From contig CBDCDW010000005.1 in NCBI GenBank assembly GCA_965215595.1, positions 235,316 through 299,315 of the forward strand: a stretch of DNA of 64,000 bases. Reading direction: 5' to 3'. The notes below the pieces were generated by a model. That model did no database searches, was not told the origin of the DNA, and saw only the letters and a program-made list of their open reading frames with translations. Origin of the DNA: an uncultured Candidatus Binatia bacterium. GTDB lineage: Bacteria; Desulfobacterota; Binatia; UBA9968; CAXXLF01. Shown here piece by piece: positions 1 through 40,754 of the stretch. Every line of letters starts with the position of its first letter. Within the stretch, counting starts at the first letter, position 1. A program made the position numbers and the translations under genes.

Positions 1-651
1 CAGATCCTGTTTGAACAACTGCCGAATGAAGTCTTTGCCCAAATCGGGATGCAAATAAAAGAACCCAAAGCTGGCCGAACCTGGCCCTGGCTTGAGCGGA
101 TCGTCAACGATAATCTTTCCTTTCCACTTGGCCTTCAGGAGATCTTTGTATGATGTAAAATCCGATTCGCTCGCGAGTTTCGTGTTAATGAACAATTGAC
201 CGCGCGTGTACGGGGACATGACCATGGCCGTCCGTCCAGCATCTAGGAACTCGAATTCCCCGTTGCGCCAGTTCTTCAGATTCTTCACTTCCGGTAGGAT
301 CATGGCCGGCTCCAGGGGAGCCAAGACTTTCATTGGGACAATCAGGGCTTCCAAGGCGCCTGCGACTATAAGATCCCACCCATAATGGCCTGCGCCGCGC
401 TCGGCGGCTATTCTAGGTGGAAAAGTTGTTACCCGTCCGCCCAAGAACTCCACAGAGATCCCGAACTTCTTCTCGAACGGCCGCACAAGACCATCCCGCC
501 GGTCCGTGCCTGTGGGCCCAAACATAGAGACCTTGCCTTCCTTCTTTGCCGCCGCAATGGTGCGCTTCCATTCGTCCTGCCAGGAAGCCCCGGATTCCAC
601 AGAAAAAATGAGGTTTACTAACATTAGGGTTACAAAGATCGAATACCTCAT
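1..651 (-). CDS. Periplasmic ABC-type substrate-binding protein (family-1/Fe3+-like SBP), N-terminal part only; 3' end lies beyond the left window edge
   Basis: Minus-strand translation from ATG (complement of 649-651) gives MRYSIFVTLMLVNLIFSVESGASWQDEWKRTIAAAKKEGKVSMFGPTG..., a signal-peptide-like N-terminus then an SBP core. It is clearly paralogous to the SBP at 52705-53814 (ASDWEQVVAAAKKEGRVVIIGPQGTW...). The frame stays open to position 1, so the ORF is missing from the supplied track. Confidence 0.5.
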   Translation of the reverse strand, partial: MRYSIFVTLMLVNLIFSVESGASWQDEWKRTIAAAKKEGKVSMFGPTGTDRRDGLVRPFEKKFGISVEFLGGRVTTFPPRIAAERGAGHYGWDLIVAGALEALIVPMKVLAPLEPAMILPEVKNLKNWRNGEFEFLDAGRTAMVMSPYTRGQLFINTKLASESDFTSYKDLLKAKWKGKIIVDDPLKPGPGSASFGFFYLHPDLGKDFIRQLFKQDL

Positions 652-2640: not shown

Positions 2641-2764
2641 CCTCCCCTAGACCCAACTTCCCCTCACTCAATTTTGGAATCCATTTTTGTAACATGTGGA
2701 TTCACCTTGTATTATAAATTCATTTGGAATATTTGTTGATTCTGCCGGTAACAACCAGGTCATT

Positions 2765-3439
2765 ATGGGCAAAAGAATAACCATCACAGGAAAAGACGGA
2801 TTTCATTTTGGCGCCTTTTTGGACGAACCTGACGGCAAACCAAAGGGCGGAGTAGTTGTCTGCCAGGAAATCTTCGGTGTCAATCAATATTTGGAAAACG
2901 TTTGCGACTTTTACACCAAGGCAGGTTACTTGACCATCGCACCAGCGCTCTTTGACCGAATAGAACGCGATCTGGATATAAAATATTCACCAGAAGGCGT
3001 CCAGCGAGGCATACAGATTTCGTCTAAAGTTGACTGGGACCAAGCGCTGGACGACGTAGAGTCGTCACTGGCCACGGTTCGTACGGCGGGAGCTCAAAAG
3101 TTTGGCGCCATCGGATTTTGTTGGGGTGGTACGCTCGCCTGGCTCCTCGCATGCCGCCGTGAAGTTGACTGTGCAGTGGCCTATTACGGCGCGGAGATAG
3201 AGCAATTTCCCAATGAGCATGCCCGTCATCCCGTGATAATGCACATCGGGGAAGAGGACCCTATCATATCGCCAGAGAAACTTGAGAGTATAAAGAAGGC
3301 CCAGGCCGGCACGCCGATTTTCACTTATCCAAAGGCGTCCCACGGTTTTGACAACGAAGCCCGGCCGAAATACGACTCTGCCACGGTAAAGCTCGCTCGC
3401 GAACGCACCCTCGAATTTCTCGCTAAGCACGTACGGTAG
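2765..3439 (+). CDS. Dienelactone hydrolase family protein (carboxymethylenebutenolidase-like)
   Basis: MGKRITITGKDGFHFGAFLDEPDGKPKGGVVVCQEIFGVNQYLENVCDFYTKAGYLTIAPALFDR..., then a GxxG nucleophile elbow region (GFCWGG) and the C-terminal HGFDNE motif. The ORF track starts at 2696, but the internal Met at 2765 gives the canonical DLH length (~225 aa). Confidence 0.75.
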   Translation: MGKRITITGKDGFHFGAFLDEPDGKPKGGVVVCQEIFGVNQYLENVCDFYTKAGYLTIAPALFDRIERDLDIKYSPEGVQRGIQISSKVDWDQALDDVESSLATVRTAGAQKFGAIGFCWGGTLAWLLACRREVDCAVAYYGAEIEQFPNEHARHPVIMHIGEEDPIISPEKLESIKKAQAGTPIFTYPKASHGFDNEARPKYDSATVKLARERTLEFLAKHVR

Positions 3440-3455
3440 GCAAACAACACTCCTC
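3336..3455. repeat. Direct repeat copy 1 (3' end of the DLH gene plus ~15 bp downstream), ~92% identical to 9188-9300
   Basis: cgtcccacggttttgacaacgaagcccggccgaaatacgactctgccacggtaaagctcgctcgcgaacgcaccctcgaatttctcgctaagcacgta... is repeated at 9188 with a few substitutions. The spurious antisense ORFs at 3065..3430 and 8641..9282 share the N-terminus MLSEKFEGAFASELYRGRVVFRPGFVV for the same reason. Confidence 0.85.
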
Positions 3456-3896: not shown

Positions 3897-4475
3897 ATGG
3901 CTTTAGTGAGAATTCCAGAGGGTCTTAATCATGCTCACTTTGATAAAATAAGAGAAATACAGGAAAACATTTTATCGGATATAAAAGGTGCAAGGCGGGT
4001 AGGTATTCGGCTTAATAAAACAGACACAACATATCCATCCCCTGTTTTTGTTGGAATTCTTGAGGATGCTACCATGAGGACCGATAGAGTAAGACGGGGT
4101 GGGGTGGATCCGGGACACGAACGGTTTAGGAATGAGGACTTCTCAGTGATTTACAATCAAACTGTTTCTGACCCTCAAGGCAAATATTGGGAGCGAGATT
4201 GGAATGAAGATAATGATTGTTATGAAAAAACCCTAGGGGGATTAAGGAAGCAAGGCAATAATGATAAGGGAGGCGTAAGATATCAAATCTTCATTGCAAT
4301 TAGAATTGCTGACGGGGCTTGTAAGCGTTCTATAGGGATTTTGGGAATAGGACTTGATGAAAAGCCGCAAGATATGAGGGACGTTGGGGCTGCAATGATA
4401 CGCTGGGCCCAAAGCAACTCTGAGCTCGTTCAACATATCACAAATACATACAAGCTTGGGGGGCCACTGTTTTAA
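3897..4475 (+). CDS. Hypothetical 192-aa cytoplasmic protein, translationally coupled to the downstream histidine kinase
   Basis: A good RBS (ggaaggag) precedes the ATG. The stop (4473-4475) lies 3 bp before the HK start. The region is AT-rich relative to its neighbours, no TM segment is present, and I recognise no motif. Confidence 0.5.
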   Translation: MALVRIPEGLNHAHFDKIREIQENILSDIKGARRVGIRLNKTDTTYPSPVFVGILEDATMRTDRVRRGGVDPGHERFRNEDFSVIYNQTVSDPQGKYWERDWNEDNDCYEKTLGGLRKQGNNDKGGVRYQIFIAIRIADGACKRSIGILGIGLDEKPQDMRDVGAAMIRWAQSNSELVQHITNTYKLGGPLF

Positions 4476-4478
4476 GCT

Positions 4479-6173
4479 ATGCCGCGACCGAAACGCAAAG
4501 CCGCGAACAAAAAAAAGGGCTCCTTGTTAAGAATCTCTCCTACCAACGAAAATTTACTCTCTCGGGCTACGGACCTCTCAGCCCTGCTCACACTGGTAGA
4601 AACGGCGACCCAATCGCTCGATACCGACAAGATCTTGAACGACACGCTGGATAAATCGTTGGAGGTCCTGCGTTTTGATGTGGGCTATATTCGAATTTTG
4701 GACCCGGAAACAAGAACTATGGTGGTCCGCGTGGGCAAAGGCTCAAGATTGCCTGAGATTCAGTACAGCACCGTTCCTATAGATTCGCCTCGTCGTCATT
4801 TAGCAAGCATTATCTTCAAAACTCGCGAGCCCTATATCTGCCTCGATGTTCGGAAAGATAAAAAGTTCAACAACCGAAGCATGGAGCGAGAGGGGGCCAT
4901 TTCAGCAGCTTTTATTCCTATTATGTCTAAGACTCGTATATTAGGAATCATAACGTTAGGAAGTCGCAAGTTTCATAAGTTTACCAAAAGAGAGATTAAT
5001 CTCCTCAAGGCCTTTGGCTCCCAGCTTGGCGCTGCGCTGAAAAATGCTCAACTCTACGACGAGGTGAATAATGGCAAGGCCTATATCGAAAATCTCGTGG
5101 AAAATGCGGGCGACGCTATCATCTCCACGGATCTGGAGGACCAGATCCTCACCTGGAACCGTGGCGCAGAGGTCATATTTGGCTACAGTAAAGAAGAGGT
5201 AGTAAGTAAAAATCTGACTATTCTTCTGCTTCCAAGCGATCATAGGGAACTTGAGGGGATGCGTAACAAAGTCAAGCTGACTGGTGTGATTCGTGACCTT
5301 GAGGTGCGACGAAAGAGAAAGGATGGGCGAATCATTAATGTGACCGTGGCAGTTTCACCCATTAAAGACAATAACGGCAATGTTATCGGGTTTCTCCGGT
5401 TAGCCAAAGACATCACTGAGAAAAAACGTTTTGAGGAAAGGCTCAAAGAACTCGATAGGATGAAATCGGACTTTGTTTCCAACGTCTCCCACGAATTAAG
5501 GACACCGCTTACCTCAATTAAAGGCTCGGTGGACAATATGCTTGACGGTATAACGGGCCCATTGAACGAAAAACAAAACCGCTATCTTACGCGCATCAAG
5601 TCGAATTCGGATCGTCTCTCGCGGCTCATCAATGACATCTTGGACCTCTCAAAATCCGAATCGGGGCGATTCGACCTTACGCCGACGGATCTTCCTCTTG
5701 TCACTCTAACGCAGGAGGTCGCAGAGAGCATTAGGCCAGTGGCAACGGAAAAGCTTATTAGTCTTGAGGTTGCCTCTCCTGATATTAATCTGACTGCTTG
5801 GGCAGATCTAGATAAGGTCACGCAGGTGCTGTTGAACCTCATTGGCAATGCAGTCAAGTTCACTCCGCCCTATGGCAAAGTAGGCGTAGCTATTCAAAGA
5901 AATGGGAATGAGTGGGTGCAGATATCCGTTACAGACACAGGACCAGGTATTCAGACGGACCAGGTAGATAAGATCTTCGATAAGTTTTACCAAGTTGCCC
6001 AAGCAACAAAACAAATAGCCAAAGGCACCGGACTGGGACTCGCTATTTGTAAAGCCATTGTGGAAATGCACGGGGGACGTATCTGGGTAGAAAGTAAATT
6101 AGGCAAAGGAAGCACCTTTTCCTTCACTCTACCTGCGCAGCAGCCGTTTAAGTTTGAACTACCTGCCAGATAG
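4479..6173 (+). CDS. Cytoplasmic sensor histidine kinase (GAF - PAS - HisKA - HATPase_c)
   Basis: A GAF-like N-terminal region is followed by a PAS block (ENLVENAGDAIISTDLEDQILTWNRGAEVIFGY), the H-box SHELRTPLTSIKGS, and N/G boxes (NLIGNAVKFT, DTGPGI, GTGLGLAICKAIVEMHGGRIWVES). No TM helices are present. Confidence 0.85.
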   Translation: MPRPKRKAANKKKGSLLRISPTNENLLSRATDLSALLTLVETATQSLDTDKILNDTLDKSLEVLRFDVGYIRILDPETRTMVVRVGKGSRLPEIQYSTVPIDSPRRHLASIIFKTREPYICLDVRKDKKFNNRSMEREGAISAAFIPIMSKTRILGIITLGSRKFHKFTKREINLLKAFGSQLGAALKNAQLYDEVNNGKAYIENLVENAGDAIISTDLEDQILTWNRGAEVIFGYSKEEVVSKNLTILLLPSDHRELEGMRNKVKLTGVIRDLEVRRKRKDGRIINVTVAVSPIKDNNGNVIGFLRLAKDITEKKRFEERLKELDRMKSDFVSNVSHELRTPLTSIKGSVDNMLDGITGPLNEKQNRYLTRIKSNSDRLSRLINDILDLSKSESGRFDLTPTDLPLVTLTQEVAESIRPVATEKLISLEVASPDINLTAWADLDKVTQVLLNLIGNAVKFTPPYGKVGVAIQRNGNEWVQISVTDTGPGIQTDQVDKIFDKFYQVAQATKQIAKGTGLGLAICKAIVEMHGGRIWVESKLGKGSTFSFTLPAQQPFKFELPAR

Positions 6174-6589: not shown

Positions 6590-7915
6590 GTGGTCGATGA
6601 TGACCAGAATATCCAGGAGGTGATCAAAGACCGCCTGGAATCCCTGAATTGCCGGGTATTGCTAGCCTCCAATGGGAAAGAGTGCTTGGAAGTTCTCGAG
6701 CACCAGAGCCCGCAGATGGTCCTTCTTGACATCGAGATGCCCGGTGTCAACGGGCTCGAAGTTCTAAAAGAAATTCGTAAGAGAGAGTACGATGTGAGCG
6801 TGGTAATGATCACAGCTCACGGCACCATTGATCGTGCAGTGCAGGCGATCAAGGGAGGGGCCTATGATTTTATTCAGAAGCCTTTTGAGCCTGACCATAT
6901 TGCCTTAATTGTGGAGCGGACCCTGGAGAGGGAAAGGCTTAAAAGAGACGTAGAGATCTTCTCCGAAGAGATAGGCAAACGTTATAACCTGATTGTGGGT
7001 AAGAGTGCCAAGATGAACCGGGCAGTTGAATTGGCTAAGAAGTCGAGCGCAAGTCGGTCCACTGTGTTGCTTTTAGGAGAAAGTGGAACCGGCAAAGAGA
7101 TATTTGCTCGGGCGATCCACAATTGGAGTGAGCGTTATGGCAAGCCCTTTATTGCCATTAACTGCGTTGGCCTTTCACGGGAACTCTTGGAAAGCGAGCT
7201 TTTCGGCCATGAAAAAGGAGCTTTTACGGGGGCCCATCAGCTTAAAAAAGGCAAGATGGAACTGGCCCATGGTGGGACCATCTTTCTTGATGAAGTTGGC
7301 GATATTTCTCAAGAACTCCAAACCAAACTCCTCAGATTTCTCCAAGAGCGGGAATTTGAGCGGGTCGGAGGGACAAAATCTATCATTGTGGATGTGAGAA
7401 TCATAGCCGCCACGAATCGCGATCTGGATCGGGCGGTCAAAGAAAATAAATTCCGTGAGGATCTCTATTATCGCCTCAACGTCATTCCCATTGTTCTTCC
7501 TCCTTTAAGAGAACGAAGAGAAGACATTCCTACCCTGGCCTACTATTTTTTGCGGCGGTTTTCCTCGGAAACCAAGAAAAGCTTCACCGAGATAACCCTA
7601 GAAGCCTCCGAGAAACTCCAAGCCTATGACTGGCCGGGAAATGTCCGCGAGCTAGGAAATGTCATGGAGCGGGCCGTTGTTTTGGGCCAGGCTCCAAAAG
7701 TTCAACTGGAAGACCTGGCACCCAGTATCGCTTTCTCACAGCCCGTGAACCGCGAAGAAGACTATTCGTATCATGAGGCCACGGATAGCTACAAACGGCA
7801 GCTAATCATTCGGGCCCTAACACAGGCACAGGGAAATCGCGCCGCGGCTGCAAGGGCCCTCGGTCTTCAGCGGACCTATCTTTCCCGATTGATAAAAACT
7901 CTTCGTATTGGCTGA
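6590..7915 (+). CDS. Sigma-54-dependent response regulator (NtrC family: REC - AAA+ - Fis-type HTH)
   Basis: REC (VVDDDQNIQEVIKDRLE...LLDIEMP), Walker A GESGTGKE, a canonical GAFTGA (ESELFGHEKGAFTGA), an R-finger region, and a C-terminal HTH (NRAAAARALGLQRTYLSRLIK). The start is GTG. The REC domain is paralogous to that of the preceding CheY-like gene. Confidence 0.85.
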   Translation: MVDDDQNIQEVIKDRLESLNCRVLLASNGKECLEVLEHQSPQMVLLDIEMPGVNGLEVLKEIRKREYDVSVVMITAHGTIDRAVQAIKGGAYDFIQKPFEPDHIALIVERTLERERLKRDVEIFSEEIGKRYNLIVGKSAKMNRAVELAKKSSASRSTVLLLGESGTGKEIFARAIHNWSERYGKPFIAINCVGLSRELLESELFGHEKGAFTGAHQLKKGKMELAHGGTIFLDEVGDISQELQTKLLRFLQEREFERVGGTKSIIVDVRIIAATNRDLDRAVKENKFREDLYYRLNVIPIVLPPLRERREDIPTLAYYFLRRFSSETKKSFTEITLEASEKLQAYDWPGNVRELGNVMERAVVLGQAPKVQLEDLAPSIAFSQPVNREEDYSYHEATDSYKRQLIIRALTQAQGNRAAAARALGLQRTYLSRLIKTLRIG

Positions 7916-8014
7916 GTCATTTTGGATCGCTGACTCCGCTAAGACTTTCCATATCGCCGTCGAATCTCTCACCAAAGAGACTTTCCCTATGGGCTGAATC
8001 CTTTTCTTCACATG

Positions 8015-8034
8015 CCGTATCCACAAGGATACGG
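8015..8034 (+). promoter_or_regulatory. Perfect 8-4-8 palindrome ccgtatcc-acaa-ggatacgg, ~100 bp upstream of the sigma-54 promoter; candidate enhancer (UAS) for the adjacent NtrC-type activator
   Basis: Dyad symmetry is visible directly. The distance to the -24/-12 element is typical for bEBP enhancers. Confidence 0.35.
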
Positions 8035-8118
8035 GTCTCTCTATCGCTCCATCAGATGACTCAACCGATTTCCCTTTGATTCAGTAGCTTATCCAATTTT
8101 GTCGCTACTGCCGCTGAT

Positions 8119-8133
8119 TGGCACAGCCTTTGC
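8119..8133 (+). promoter_or_regulatory. Sigma-54 (RpoN) -24/-12 promoter TGGCAC-N5-TTGC, ~36 bp upstream of the cyclase start
   Basis: ttGGcacagcctttGCg matches the consensus YTGGCACG-N4-TTGCW, with the GG and GC doublets correctly spaced. It sits immediately downstream of a sigma-54 activator gene. Confidence 0.6.
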
Positions 8134-8169
8134 GCTACTGTTTAAACGTACCTTGAAGAAGAATATCAA

Positions 8170-9186
8170 ATGGGGGAAATGATGGCTGAAGAGATTCTGG
8201 TCCCAACCAAAGGTCTAAATGGCATTGAGGAAATCATCCCTCACCTCGAGCATATTGCCAATCCAGCAATGAGCGTCATTTTGCTGGTTCCCTACCGAAC
8301 GGAGCTTCTCCGCAGCCTTTTGCATCAGTGGATTCCAGCAGAGTCGAGGGAGGAAGATTTACCACAGGGTATAGAGACCACGGAAGGGCTCTCACTGGAG
8401 CCACAAAACAGGTTGGCTGATCAGAATAGCGCTCCCGCTCGTGAGAGTTTAATGAAATTTGACCCCCGTAACGTAAGCCTTTACTATCTTGGCTCCAATG
8501 GAGTAGAGCACGACGTTCCTAAAGGAAAGATGGCCATGGAGCTCATAGGACTCGAACGTAAGCTCACCGCCATCCTTAGCGCCGATGTGGTTGGCTATAG
8601 CCGCCTGATGGGCGAGGATGAAGCGGGCACAATCCATACCTTAACGGCCTACCGCGAAGTGATGACCACCCTTATCCAGCAACACCGTGGCAGAGTCGTG
8701 GACGCACCGGGTGACAATCTCTTGGCGGAGTTTGCCAGCGCAGTGGGCGCGGTGGAGAGCGCGCTCGCTATTCAGCAAGAGTTGAAGACGAGGAACGCCG
8801 AACTGCCTGCTGACCGCCAGATGGTCTATCGTATCGGAATTAACGTTGGCGAGGTCGTGGTCGAGGGCGAGCGGATTTATGGTGACGGTGTCAATATTGC
8901 CTCCCGTTTGGAGAGCTTGGCCGAGAGCGGAGGCATCTGCCTCTCGGGGAATGCTTTTGAACTGGTTCGTGATAAGCTGGCGGTCGGCTTTAAAAACCTC
9001 GGTGATCGAAGGGTCAAGAATATCAACAGACCGATTTCTGCCTATAGCGTGCTCACCGATCCTGACTTCGTTGGAAAGGTGAAAAACGCGCCCGCGAAGG
9101 GGTTTGCTCGTTGGAAATGGCCAGCCGTCACCACCACCGTCATGTTCATTCTTATCGCAGCAAGCATTGGAGTGTGGTGGCCCTAA
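8170..9186 (+). CDS. Class III adenylate/guanylate cyclase with an unknown ~120-aa N-terminal region and a C-terminal single TM anchor
   Basis: Cyclase homology domain: LERKLTAILSADVVGYSRLMGEDEAGTI...VDAPGDNLLAEF...YRIGINVGEVVVEGERIYGDGVNIASRL. A C-terminal hydrophobic helix (WPAVTTTVMFILIAASIGVWWP) closes the protein. The N-terminal 120 aa have no recognisable motif. Confidence 0.8.
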   Translation: MGEMMAEEILVPTKGLNGIEEIIPHLEHIANPAMSVILLVPYRTELLRSLLHQWIPAESREEDLPQGIETTEGLSLEPQNRLADQNSAPARESLMKFDPRNVSLYYLGSNGVEHDVPKGKMAMELIGLERKLTAILSADVVGYSRLMGEDEAGTIHTLTAYREVMTTLIQQHRGRVVDAPGDNLLAEFASAVGAVESALAIQQELKTRNAELPADRQMVYRIGINVGEVVVEGERIYGDGVNIASRLESLAESGGICLSGNAFELVRDKLAVGFKNLGDRRVKNINRPISAYSVLTDPDFVGKVKNAPAKGFARWKWPAVTTTVMFILIAASIGVWWP

Positions 9187-9187
9187 A

Positions 9188-9300
9188 CGTCCCATGGCAT
9201 TGACAACGAAGCCCGGCCGAAATACGACTCTGCCACGGTAAAGCTCGCTCGCGAACGCACCCTCGAATTTCTCGCTAAGCACGTAGGATAATCAAACAAG
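9188..9300. repeat. Direct repeat copy 2, starting 2 bp after the cyclase stop codon
   Basis: See copy 1. It encodes a gene-less ...HGIDNEARPKYDSATVKLARERTLEFLAKHVG* tail. Confidence 0.85.
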
Positions 9301-13590: not shown

Positions 13591-13696
13591 TCACGTGGGA
13601 CACAGTTCATGAGCTACTTAAACCCATCCTAGTATTTATCCACTTGGCGTATTGAAATTTCATTTTCCTAGCGTTTCACCCATTGATCCGTGTTTC

Positions 13697-13735
13697 GTAA
13701 CTAAGAATGGCATTGAGTTTGCGTTCCATATTTTG
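13697..13735 (-). other. Orphan 5' fragment (promoter/5'UTR + first ~10 codons, MERKLNAILS...) homologous to the start of the 1139-aa cyclase-STAND gene
   Basis: The complement reads atggaacgcaaactcaatgccattcttagt (MERKLNAILS), versus atggaacgcaaactcactgccattcttagt at 19249. About 55 bp of upstream sequence are also alignable (catattt-g...tgaaacttaga...). The frame then diverges. Confidence 0.45.
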
Positions 13736-13764
13736 TAATCAATGGGCTTGAAACTTAGAGACCA

Positions 13765-13830
13765 ATATCACAGGGGAAAAGTCTGTCAAGGAGACCAAGA
13801 TGTAATTAAACGACGCTTTAATTGAGCGTT
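13765..13830. repeat. Short dispersed repeat, copy B
   Basis: atatcacaggggaaaagtctgtcaaggagaccaagatgtaattaaacgacgctttaattgagcg versus copy A atcacagagaagacaggtgtcaaggagatcc...aagatgtggttcaatgacgctttagtcg. Confidence 0.5.
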
Positions 13831-18800: not shown

Positions 18801-19249
18801 AGGTCCTCAAAGTTAACAGATACCTTTCCCTTGATATGCTCAAATACCGTCCCCGATATGCATATGCCACCAGGTTCCGCTAATCCCTCCATCCGTGCTG
18901 CGATGTTCACCCCATCACCGTAAATCCGCTCCCCTTCCACGATCACATCACCAAGGTTAATCCCTATACGAAACTCCATGCTGCGGTTCTCTGGCAAATT
19001 GGCGTTCTCTGCCCTGAGCGTAGATTGGACTACGGCGGCACATTTCACCGCATCTACCACGCTGCCAAACTCCGCCAACAGGTTATCTCCAGGGGAGTCC
19101 ACTACTCTGCCCCGATTGCGCGGGATGAGAAACGTCATCACTTGTCGGTGAGAGGTCAATGTGCGAATGGTCGCCTCCTCATCCTCCCCCATTAGTCGAC
19201 TGTAACCTTCGACATCCGCACTAAGAATGGCAGTGAGTTTGCGTTCCAT
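15830..19249 (-). CDS. Large tripartite signalling protein: N-terminal class III nucleotidyl cyclase domain - central P-loop NTPase (AAA/NB-ARC-like, GEPGIGKTSL) - C-terminal TPR-like helical repeats; no HTH
   Basis: N-terminus MERKLTAILSADVEGYSRLMGEDEEATI...SPGDNLLAEF...FRIGINLGDVIVEGERIYGDGVNIAARM is paralogous to the cyclase at 8170. Walker A VGEPGIGKTSLCEQL and a Walker B-like LLVVLEDLHDAD follow. About 600 aa of Ala/Leu-rich repeats make up the C-terminal half. The gene is high-GC. Confidence 0.8.
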   Translation of the reverse strand: MERKLTAILSADVEGYSRLMGEDEEATIRTLTSHRQVMTFLIPRNRGRVVDSPGDNLLAEFGSVVDAVKCAAVVQSTLRAENANLPENRSMEFRIGINLGDVIVEGERIYGDGVNIAARMEGLAEPGGICISGTVFEHIKGKVSVNFEDLGPQQVKNIAEPIRAYRAVLDQGTALAKPQKKVEVPRRQPPTVELPEKVTLPEEKLNAGTVEPTPLSVAGKETARLGVNDSLYGRTFVGRERELRQLQGAFDATLSYQGSLAMVVGEPGIGKTSLCEQLVTYVTQRGGMALVGHCYEEGSLSLPYLPFVEAMRSYVLTQESDDLRRDLGSGAADVARLVSEIQDRLRVEVRPPGDPEDDRWRLLQAVSEFLRNASMVQPLLVVLEDLHDADRGTLDLLLHISHNLQGTHLLIVGTYRDVEVDRAHPLSSALAELRRAGSFLRVSPRGLTVEEVQRMMSIVRGQDVPWSGAEAIHRQTEGNPLFVHEVLRYLVEEGIVVRESGRYLLADSEAGIPEGLRDVVGKRLSRLTEKANQILSVAAVIGREFRLDVLEQVAGLPEEELYGALEEATGRAVIEQRQAVGTVGFRFTHAFFRQTLYEEIFVPRRIRLHQQVGKTLEEVYSQRLDEHAAELTEHFIQSTERGDLEKALSYSEMAAKQAMQVFAYGEAARRLEQALRTQEVLDPDNKAKRCDLLLALGEAIGPAGEPQRAAEQVATEALRLAEFLGDDIRASRACELAVDALHRHGGPYMVLTDIYLNWAESLDRYAAPNSRSRVYADCILASVRRPRGKHGVANALVLRALELARRLDDPEVLFRAAASMMFMGWPPQYQQEQRHMAYEITDRPRHRVRTTTLALVLQRAQTLFLAAGDRARTEQVWRELSELANHTRDVVALLWPLQLEAVRATLSGELESSVEVAARLKSQAIELGIPRAGELSAEWLSFQPLLYLGHEDASPIRERVLAARGAFAVVQILKDAHQGRSAEALMGAQRSLANLRPQAAAGEAGTFHLATLLEVAVVVGDRETATFAREQLQGLVAIGLHDLVVFNVARQLGGAAALLGDREDAQAEYERALAWATSIQYRPEIALTRLQLAELLLQGTSEEKAQAREHLDFAISEFREMKMKPALERALRHKNVLSA

Positions 19250-19555
19250 ATTTGGGACTCAATCGGACTGAAACTAAGAAAACAAAATTACGGAGAAACA
19301 GGATTTCTCAACGCAAAAAGTAAGTCAGTTTTTCCGTTAAGTAGAAATGATGATATGATTTGTCTTTTCAGCATAGCTTTATCCTCCTCTATATTTGTTG
19401 ATCAGCGGAGATCTAAACGCTAGTTATTTATCCTTTGCCCGCTCTCCCAAAGCGTCGTTGATCACTCAAACGTATGGCTTAAGCTCCCTGCCATCCGGGT
19501 CAAATTTTTAAGCTGGCTATTCTGCAACCGATATCCAGCACTTGTCAAGGTTCGG

Positions 19556-40379: not shown

Positions 40380-40754
40380 ATTGCTTCTCCTTTCGGATTT
40401 TGAGTTTTCTGAAACTCTCGCAGTCTTTTTTTTGTCCTGCATGCAATACCTTGTTTGCAACCGCTGTGCCAAACCAGCCAGGCATGGATAACTCCCTGAG
40501 TTTTAAGGATTTTTTGAAAAATCAGGTTCGAAAGTGTTTGCCTAGCGAGTCAACTCCGTTGACATCCATTTCCCGGAAAATGCCCCAATTATCAACAAAG
40601 ACAAAGCTTTCGCTTGTCAGTAAACCGGGTTACGGTGCAGTAAACTTTGTTAACAGGATAGTTGACTGTCATCGAGGAACGATGGTTACAACGATAAATC
40701 TGATCCCAGATTGCAGCCCCCCGAGCAATTTGACAACCGATTGACCTCGGAGTT

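Follow-up and report, generated by a model that had tools for sequence, protein, structure and literature searches.

We analysed a stretch of 64,000 nucleotides from an uncultured Candidatus Binatia bacterium (NCBI GenBank assembly GCA_965215595.1, contig CBDCDW010000005.1, positions 235,316 to 299,315 of the forward strand; hereafter the window), in which a 263-bp spacer divides the gene of a bacterial enhancer-binding protein (bEBP) from the next gene and holds both a -24/-12 promoter element and an upstream dyad. This spacer is probably a working sigma-54 control region, in which the adjacent bEBP would act through the dyad to drive a gene that fuses part of a protein weakly resembling universal stress proteins (USP-like) to a class III nucleotidyl cyclase. 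An earlier note had read this wiring, from bEBP through enhancer and sigma-54 promoter to the downstream gene, off a single sequence, and phylogenetic footprinting now lends it support. As far as comparison of sequences can confirm it, the conserved promoter with its single upstream activator-binding dyad is real, and its architecture is ordinary.

The RpoN-consensus promoter with correct GG/GC spacing that the earlier note placed at 8118-8134 holds up well: TGGCACAGCCTTTGC at 8119-8133 matches TGGCAC-N5-TTGC with no mismatches, and GG and GC are separated by exactly 10 nt (GG-N10-GC). Counting both strands, the window has two perfect matches to this consensus where dinucleotide-preserving shuffles predict 0.10, and there are 12 sigma-54-like matches with one mismatch where 4.5 are expected. 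Conservation was counted over the window and six relatives: the target gene has seven full-length relatives of ~335 aa (P0002-P0008, 67-78% identical), six of which share upstream DNA, and the locus of the remaining one (L009) was left out. All comparative loci were obtained by exact-protein look-ups; none came from scans of metagenomes and genomes, whether the query was the N-terminal domain of the target by itself or an alignment of it. Within this set 14 of the 15 columns of the -24/-12 element are invariant, including all of TGGCAC and TTGC, and the one variable column is a spacer base. By comparison, 42-49% of columns are invariant in the flanking intergenic segments and 57% in the first 35 coding bases. 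The slightly relaxed pattern TGGCAY-N5-TTGC is found once per related locus (9-13 kb for the distant loci), on the correct strand and in the same place; L001, a copy of the window region, also holds an extra match of this type that is coding sequence. From the C of GC to the start codon the distance is 49 nt in the window (8133 to 8182) and 43 nt in the distant loci L010, L011 and L014.

Upstream of the promoter, the perfect dyad that had been reported at enhancer distance, ~100 bp away, is likewise present as an 8-4-8 palindrome. Its centre (8024.5) lies 96 bp upstream of the centre of the GG, which puts it at about -120 from the start site predicted near 8145, and it begins 100 nt past the bEBP stop codon. 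The conserved core, GTATCC-ACAA-GGATAC at 8017-8032, has 15 of 16 columns invariant. Generalised to GTATY-N6-RATAC, the motif occurs once in the window, against 0.11 expected, and once, at the same position each time, in 12 of the 13 loci fetched; the exception is L009, which is without the conserved upstream region. The distance from dyad centre to GG centre falls into two classes that differ by one helical turn: 96 bp in the window and 97 bp in L005 and L008, as against 107 bp in L003, L004, L006 and L007 and 108 bp in L010 and L011. The window is without 11 nt and L005/L008 are without 10 nt, and because the boundaries of these gaps differ, at least two separate deletions would have taken place, each removing about one helical turn. 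Such phasing is what an activator site that needs to face its promoter would be expected to show, and would be meaningless for a terminator.

The dyad might instead work as RNA, forming a terminator or stabilising stem-loop where the transcript of the upstream operon ends. Its location shortly after the bEBP stop codon would suit such a role, the hairpin predicted for the window RNA has 8 bp, with an energy of -13.3 kcal/mol and a z-score of -4.5, and a C-to-T change in the left arm of the dyad in close relatives would preserve a G-U pair. Against this, no U-tract follows the dyad, a terminator scan does not report it, and a terminator would have no use for a fixed and phased distance to the promoter. 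Furthermore, the corresponding RNA of L010 and L011 does not exceed shuffled sequence in stability (z -0.7 and -0.4, respectively), with the bases GTAT...GGATAC unchanged. Since sequence is kept while hairpin stability is lost, with neither compensatory changes nor a U-tract, we read the dyad as a protein-binding DNA site and rejected the hairpin or terminator, the least probable of the alternatives weighed here. A search for Rfam families in 7850-8300 gave no match at E up to 1.

Two 7-mers flank the dyad, CTGAATC (7995-8001) and GATTCAG (8079-8085), each the reverse complement of the other. Lying at -27.5 and +56.5 relative to the dyad centre, they look like the left half-site CTGTATC, which L007 carries outright at the first position. 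The 7-mers are conserved among close relatives and are not conserved in L011 or L014. They could be loose auxiliary half-sites, or could reflect an IHF-like AATCAA core on the minus strand. For an IHF site (~8077-8082) we make no claim, as conservation is confined to close relatives and the full consensus fits poorly.

Further comparisons come from distant loci. L010, from a soil metagenome, and L011, from a metagenome-assembled genome (MAG) of Deltaproteobacteria, encode bEBPs 77% and 73% identical to that of the window, and their intergenic DNA is unalignable with it except for two blocks, which are the dyad (CCGTATCA-TAAA-GGATACG in L010, CCGTATTC-TTTA-GGATACA in L011) and the promoter (TGGCACtgagcTTGCT and TGGCACggcggTTGCT). 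In both, and in the Binatia locus L014, the gene order is that of a ~190-aa protein, a GAF-PAS kinase, a 122-aa receiver (REC) protein, the bEBP and a USP-like target, so that, with the window included, four independently sampled lineages have the target gene immediately after that of the bEBP. A further contig, that of P0126, matches this order through the bEBP and then carries a cyclase gene. The bEBPs of the window, of L010 (P0130) and of L011 (P0156) all have the recognition helix LGLQRTYLSRLIK. In P0197, the bEBP of L014, this helix reads LGLEKNYLSRLIK (QRT to EKN), and GTATY-N6-RATAC is absent from that locus even when one mismatch is allowed; a good -24/-12 element, TGGCATatcccTTGCT, is retained 43 nt before the start codon. 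Recognition helix and dyad thus seem to change together in L014, which is suggestive, not conclusive, of an interaction between them. A degenerate CTATC-N6-GACAT in L014, 97 bp from the GG, was not counted, having been chosen partly by position.

Several observations weigh against the proposed control region. The co-variation argument is a single case, that of L014, which keeps the promoter although no dyad can be recognised there. Base -11 of the window promoter is G, where the consensus prefers A or T. Neither rpoN nor an open reading frame (ORF) with an RpoN box was found in the window, so the presence of sigma-54 in the organism is assumed. There is no intrinsic terminator between the bEBP stop codon and the target gene (7916-8178), and read-through expression may therefore occur. 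Adjacency is not universal, as L008 has the promoter-and-dyad cassette with no bEBP gene within 250 nt upstream. Finally, NtrC-type activators usually assemble on at least two enhancer sites; no second GTATY-N6-RATAC was found in the region, in the window or in any of the related loci, and a single dyad is atypical of an NtrC-type enhancer.

Some of these points would sit comfortably with a real promoter whose dyad is bound by a different protein, either a bEBP paralogue encoded elsewhere or a repressor or modulator. To L008 and the single dyad can be added L003, where the nearby bEBP is a different one (56% identical) on the other strand, and the sheer size of the bEBP family, with more than 100 proteins at 70-78% identity bearing the same recognition helix. 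This alternative has to contend with the target directly following the bEBP gene in the window, L010, L011 and L014, with a dyad that is present alongside the QRT helix and absent alongside EKN, and with a position (~-120/-131) and helical phasing that are those of an activator site; we regard it as unlikely. It is also conceivable, and very unlikely in our judgement, that the -24/-12 match is unused, the gene owing its expression either to transcripts running on from the kinase-REC-bEBP operon or to a promoter of some other, unrecognised kind. The missing terminator and the missing rpoN speak for this, as does the fact that consensus-like matches can be non-promoters: those at 13708 and 19228, each with one mismatch, were rejected as promoters because they are the reverse complement of coding sequence for a cyclase N-terminus (MERKLxAILS). 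The spacer element, by contrast, is perfectly conserved between lineages whose DNA around it can no longer be aligned. Each locus has one such element, correctly oriented and with the start codon 43-49 nt further on, and an intact GAFTGA-bearing bEBP is encoded next door; moreover, when 7700-8400 was scanned, nothing like a sigma-70 promoter was found on the plus strand. Control by the adjacent bEBP through a sigma-54 promoter consequently remains the reading we prefer.

The activator itself appears intact, in agreement with the earlier statement that the adjacent gene encodes a bEBP with an undamaged GAFTGA motif. Pfam recognises Response_reg (E 3.5e-31), Sigma54_activat (E 7.6e-72), AAA_lid_14 and HTH_8 (E 2.3e-5), giving the order REC, AAA+ and Fis-type helix-turn-helix (HTH); Walker A reads GESGTGKE, and GAFTGA is encoded at 7217-7234. 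Orthologues over the full length, again more than 100 at 70-78% identity, come from Binatia, Deltaproteobacteria-like and other uncultured lineages. The protein falls below every NCBIfam equivalog cut-off (AtoC, NtrC, ZraR, GlrR, PEP-CTERM PrsR and others), the best scores against cut-off being 461 of 714 bits for AtoC, 439 of 503 for PrsR and 436 of 559 for NtrC, and by these cut-offs it would be a member of an unnamed subfamily. Upstream of it in the operon lie the REC protein, the kinase and the ~190-aa protein, for which no Pfam, NCBIfam or PADLOC match was found. A defence-system reading with PADLOC was rejected, as it gave weak PycC matches only, such as any class III cyclase would be expected to give, and none for the other proteins. 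On the evidence of sequence, the regulatory element is well supported and ordinary in type, and the sensory module behind it is uncharacterised and widely conserved.

Taken together, these features suggest the following course of events. RNA polymerase with sigma-54 would bind TGGCAC-N5-TTGC (8119-8133) as a closed complex, while the GAF-PAS kinase of the same operon would phosphorylate the NtrC-type response regulator. The Fis-type HTH of the activator would bind GTATCC-ACAA-GGATAC, centred ~120 bp upstream of the start site, and through DNA looping the protein would contact the polymerase, where ATP hydrolysis coupled through the GAFTGA loop would open the promoter. Transcription is predicted to start near 8145, leaving a 5' untranslated region of ~37 nt before the ATG at 8182. 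The product would be a membrane-anchored fusion of a truncated USP-like domain, presumably the ancestral dedicated target, with a class III nucleotidyl cyclase, so that the cell would answer the signal reaching the kinase by making a cyclic nucleotide.

Features of the control region, sensory module and target gene (positions in the window)
Feature	Position	Strand	Basis or remark
-24/-12 sigma-54 promoter element TGGCACagcctTTGC	8119-8133	+	Consensus match, conservation; GG 8120-8121, GC 8132-8133
Perfect 8-4-8 dyad CCGTATCC-ACAA-GGATACGG	8015-8034	.	Proposed bEBP binding site (upstream activator sequence), ~-120
NtrC-type bEBP, 450 aa	6563-7915	+	Pfam; REC, AAA+ sigma-54 interaction domain, AAA lid, Fis-type HTH
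Stand-alone receiver (REC) protein, 122 aa	6185-6553	+	Pfam Response_reg; same position in L010, L011, L014
Cytoplasmic GAF-PAS-HisKA-HATPase histidine kinase, presumed cognate sensor	4479-6173	+	Pfam; conserved in L011, L014, P0126 contig
~190-aa conserved protein, first gene of sensory operon	3897-4475	+	188-195 aa counterpart placed alike in L011, L014, P0126 contig
Target gene, 334 aa from conserved start	8182-9186	+	USP-like N-part, linker, class III cyclase, C-terminal transmembrane helix
Truncated N-part of ~165-aa USP-like family, residues 1-97	~8182-8469	+	hhalign
Class III cyclase domain, residues ~134-284	~8569-9021	+	Pfam Guanylate_cyc (PF00211) E 3.7e-10; 3mr7 E 3.4e-39
C-terminal transmembrane helix of target	~9109-9177	+	
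Shine-Dalgarno GGGGGA of target gene	8172-8177	+	Conserved and G-rich in every relative, 4-7 nt ahead of the conserved ATG
112-nt direct repeat, left copy	3336-3447	+	3' end of dienelactone hydrolase gene (2696-3439)
112-nt direct repeat, right copy	9188-9299	+	94% identical; begins 2 nt past target stop codon

The gene under this control had been described simply as the cyclase gene. That description stands for residues ~134-284, which form a cyclase domain, and falls short for the gene as a whole, which is a USP-like/cyclase fusion. Its ORF is listed from an ATG at 8170 that is not conserved in relatives; in the seven relatives the Shine-Dalgarno sequence and the second ATG (8182, MAEEIL...) are conserved, which makes 8182 the most likely start of translation. 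In L010, L011 and L014 the gene right after that of the orthologous bEBP encodes a member of a ~165-aa family, and hhalign aligns the N-domain of the target to this family with a probability of 99.6% (E 3.6e-24). Given this homology with the usual target of the orthologous bEBPs, the window gene is best read as a fusion of the N-part of the sensory system's native target with a cyclase, with the native promoter and operator apparently retained. An exhaustive HMMER search with the N-domain returned 25 proteins at E <=0.001, most of them 160-170 aa long, and a cyclase is attached only in the window's own cluster. A profile search extended the ~165-aa family to 64 members, none with a Pfam domain, and neither the N-domain of the window nor the 165-aa and 193-aa proteins matched PF00582 (Usp) in Pfam even at E 0.1. 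An AlphaFold model of the full 338-aa protein was uninformative for the N-domain (predicted local distance difference test, pLDDT, <50), and the 165-aa family was modelled instead.

Members of the family are arranged in several ways. In L014 the gene of a 193-aa USP-like member (true start 6533) overlaps by 4 nt with the next, separate gene, which encodes a class III cyclase of 258 aa. In L010 (3132-4402) the promoter precedes two tandem ~165-aa paralogues (165 and 163 aa) and a 76-aa ORF, and P0284 and P0322, whose contigs have the same length (4951), suggest another tandem pair on one contig. A USP-like member and a bEBP are seen on the DNA of the same contig for P0297 and P0197 (235,722) and for P0290 and P0130 (31,682); for P0318 and P0191 (42,416) and P0301 and P0166 (15,097) the contigs are equal in size, which indirectly indicates co-location. 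Among the full-length relatives, the gene in L009 (P0006; 499-1737, plus strand) looks like part of a mosaic contig, in which the family N-domain and cyclase are joined to a different, longer C-terminus like that of P0012. This locus is without the conserved promoter region, a C-terminal bEBP fragment (68-526, minus strand) overlaps the gene start, and it could be either a recombinant paralogue or an assembly chimera.

Turning to the cyclase, the nearest relatives of the domain come from MAGs of Tectimicrobiota, Methylomirabilia, Binatia and Thermodesulfobacteriota. In the alignment with 3mr7 it keeps ADxxGYS, GD and GDxVNxAxRLE, and with them both metal-binding Asp and the Asn and Arg of the transition state. 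The canonical pair that specifies the substrate, Lys/Asp for ATP or a Glu/Cys-type pair for GTP, is missing: VVDAPGD stands where 3mr7 has VKTTGD (Lys to Asp), and ERIYGDGVN where it has GDIFGDAVN (Asp to Arg). This charge-swapped Asp/Arg pair is encoded at ~8700-8715 and 8870-8885, in place of the Lys and Asp of the solved homologues 3mr7 and Ma1120. P0012 and P0014, which are related cyclases that stand alone, share the Asp/Arg pair, and there may be a larger cyclase subfamily that shares an unusual nucleotide specificity.

The entire 5.85-kb module, with a G+C content of ~0.47 against 0.62 in the right flank, lies between the two copies of the 112-nt direct repeat. By its boundaries, the sensory module looks like an insertion that restored its target gene; no integrase or transposase was found inside it. 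The same repeat junction exists in L004 (83-85% identity) and not in L003 or L005-L007; L002, a short-read contig, breaks off within the repeat. Truncation of the cyclase by the junction was considered and rejected, as the ...GVWWP stop is shared by relatives that have no repeat.

Elsewhere in the window, the only perfect TGGCAC-N5-TTGC besides that at 8119 is TGGCACagcggTTGCA, at 40457-40471 on the minus strand, which may be a second sigma-54 promoter. Some 66 nt past the start site predicted from it begins a 64-aa ORF (40379-40185, minus strand) with a good Shine-Dalgarno sequence and a signal-peptide-like N-terminus (MKTNRIKVMVVAMALILGSTAG...); no bEBP gene was found near 40457-40471. The one-mismatch match in 19220-19310 lies in the MERKL(T/N)AILS coding sequence of a minus-strand gene for a 1139-aa cyclase with an AAA_16 domain, which starts at 19249, and 13640-13790 is a ~80% copy of the 5' end and leader of that gene, apparently a gene remnant.

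In its overall plan the system resembles those of NtrC, AtoC and ZraR, sharing the order of REC, AAA+ with GAFTGA and Fis-type HTH, a cognate kinase in the same operon, and a dyad ~100-130 bp upstream of a GG-N10-GC promoter before a neighbouring gene; AtoC is also the best NCBIfam match of the bEBP, followed by the PEP-CTERM regulator and NtrC, all below cut-off. It differs in having a single dyad and not tandem sites, a cytoplasmic GAF-PAS kinase, an operon that adds a stand-alone REC and a ~190-aa protein, and a target that is an uncharacterised USP-like protein and not a metabolic or transport operon. The same logic and picture were drawn by comparative genomics for the EBP regulons of Desulfovibrio vulgaris and other cultured Desulfovibrionales, where EBP genes are found together with operons whose sigma-54 promoters and palindromic upstream sites are both conserved (Kazakov et al. 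2015, PMC4641369). The GTATY-N6-RATAC site and a USP-like/cyclase target were not found in that paper, and the words 'universal stress' are absent from its main text. Precedent for control of a cyclase gene by the bEBP family comes from Pseudomonas putida, in which FleQ binds upstream of cyaA and alters its transcription, needing neither ATPase nor RpoN binding to do so (PMC8125075). There, however, cyaA is a class I cyclase that is not under sigma-54 enhancer activation, whereas the window has a class III cyclase behind a canonical -24/-12 element.

The regulatory logic described here is that of the textbook, and current understanding is not overturned; the value of the finding lies in its specifics. 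For an unnamed and highly conserved bEBP subfamily it supplies a predicted operator, GTATY-N6-RATAC, phased at 96 or 107 bp from the GG, together with a dedicated target. It also offers an apparent case of promoter capture, in which an old sigma-54 control region and the 5' part of its native target now drive a class III cyclase domain, and such a gene fusion shows a route by which an old sensory pathway can acquire a new output; in evolutionary terms the fusion is a mildly interesting twist. More tentatively, we suggest that the ~190-aa protein, GAF-PAS kinase, REC and GTATY-N6-RATAC-binding bEBP constitute a widespread and uncharacterised sigma-54 module, whose output would be a new USP-like family working with cyclic-nucleotide synthesis. 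The Asp/Arg pair hints that the fused cyclase might make a cyclic nucleotide other than cAMP. One possibility for the USP-like part is that it binds or gates a nucleotide, by analogy with Rv1636 of Mycobacterium tuberculosis, a cAMP-binding universal stress protein (PMC11107214). USP-like and cyclase genes overlap in Binatia, a cyclase follows the bEBP on the P0126 contig of a third lineage, and USP-like part and cyclase are fused in the window, which would amount to a functional link of the Rosetta-stone type. This recurring association, adjacent in Binatia and fused here, would thus provide a functional hypothesis for a family that is without annotation.

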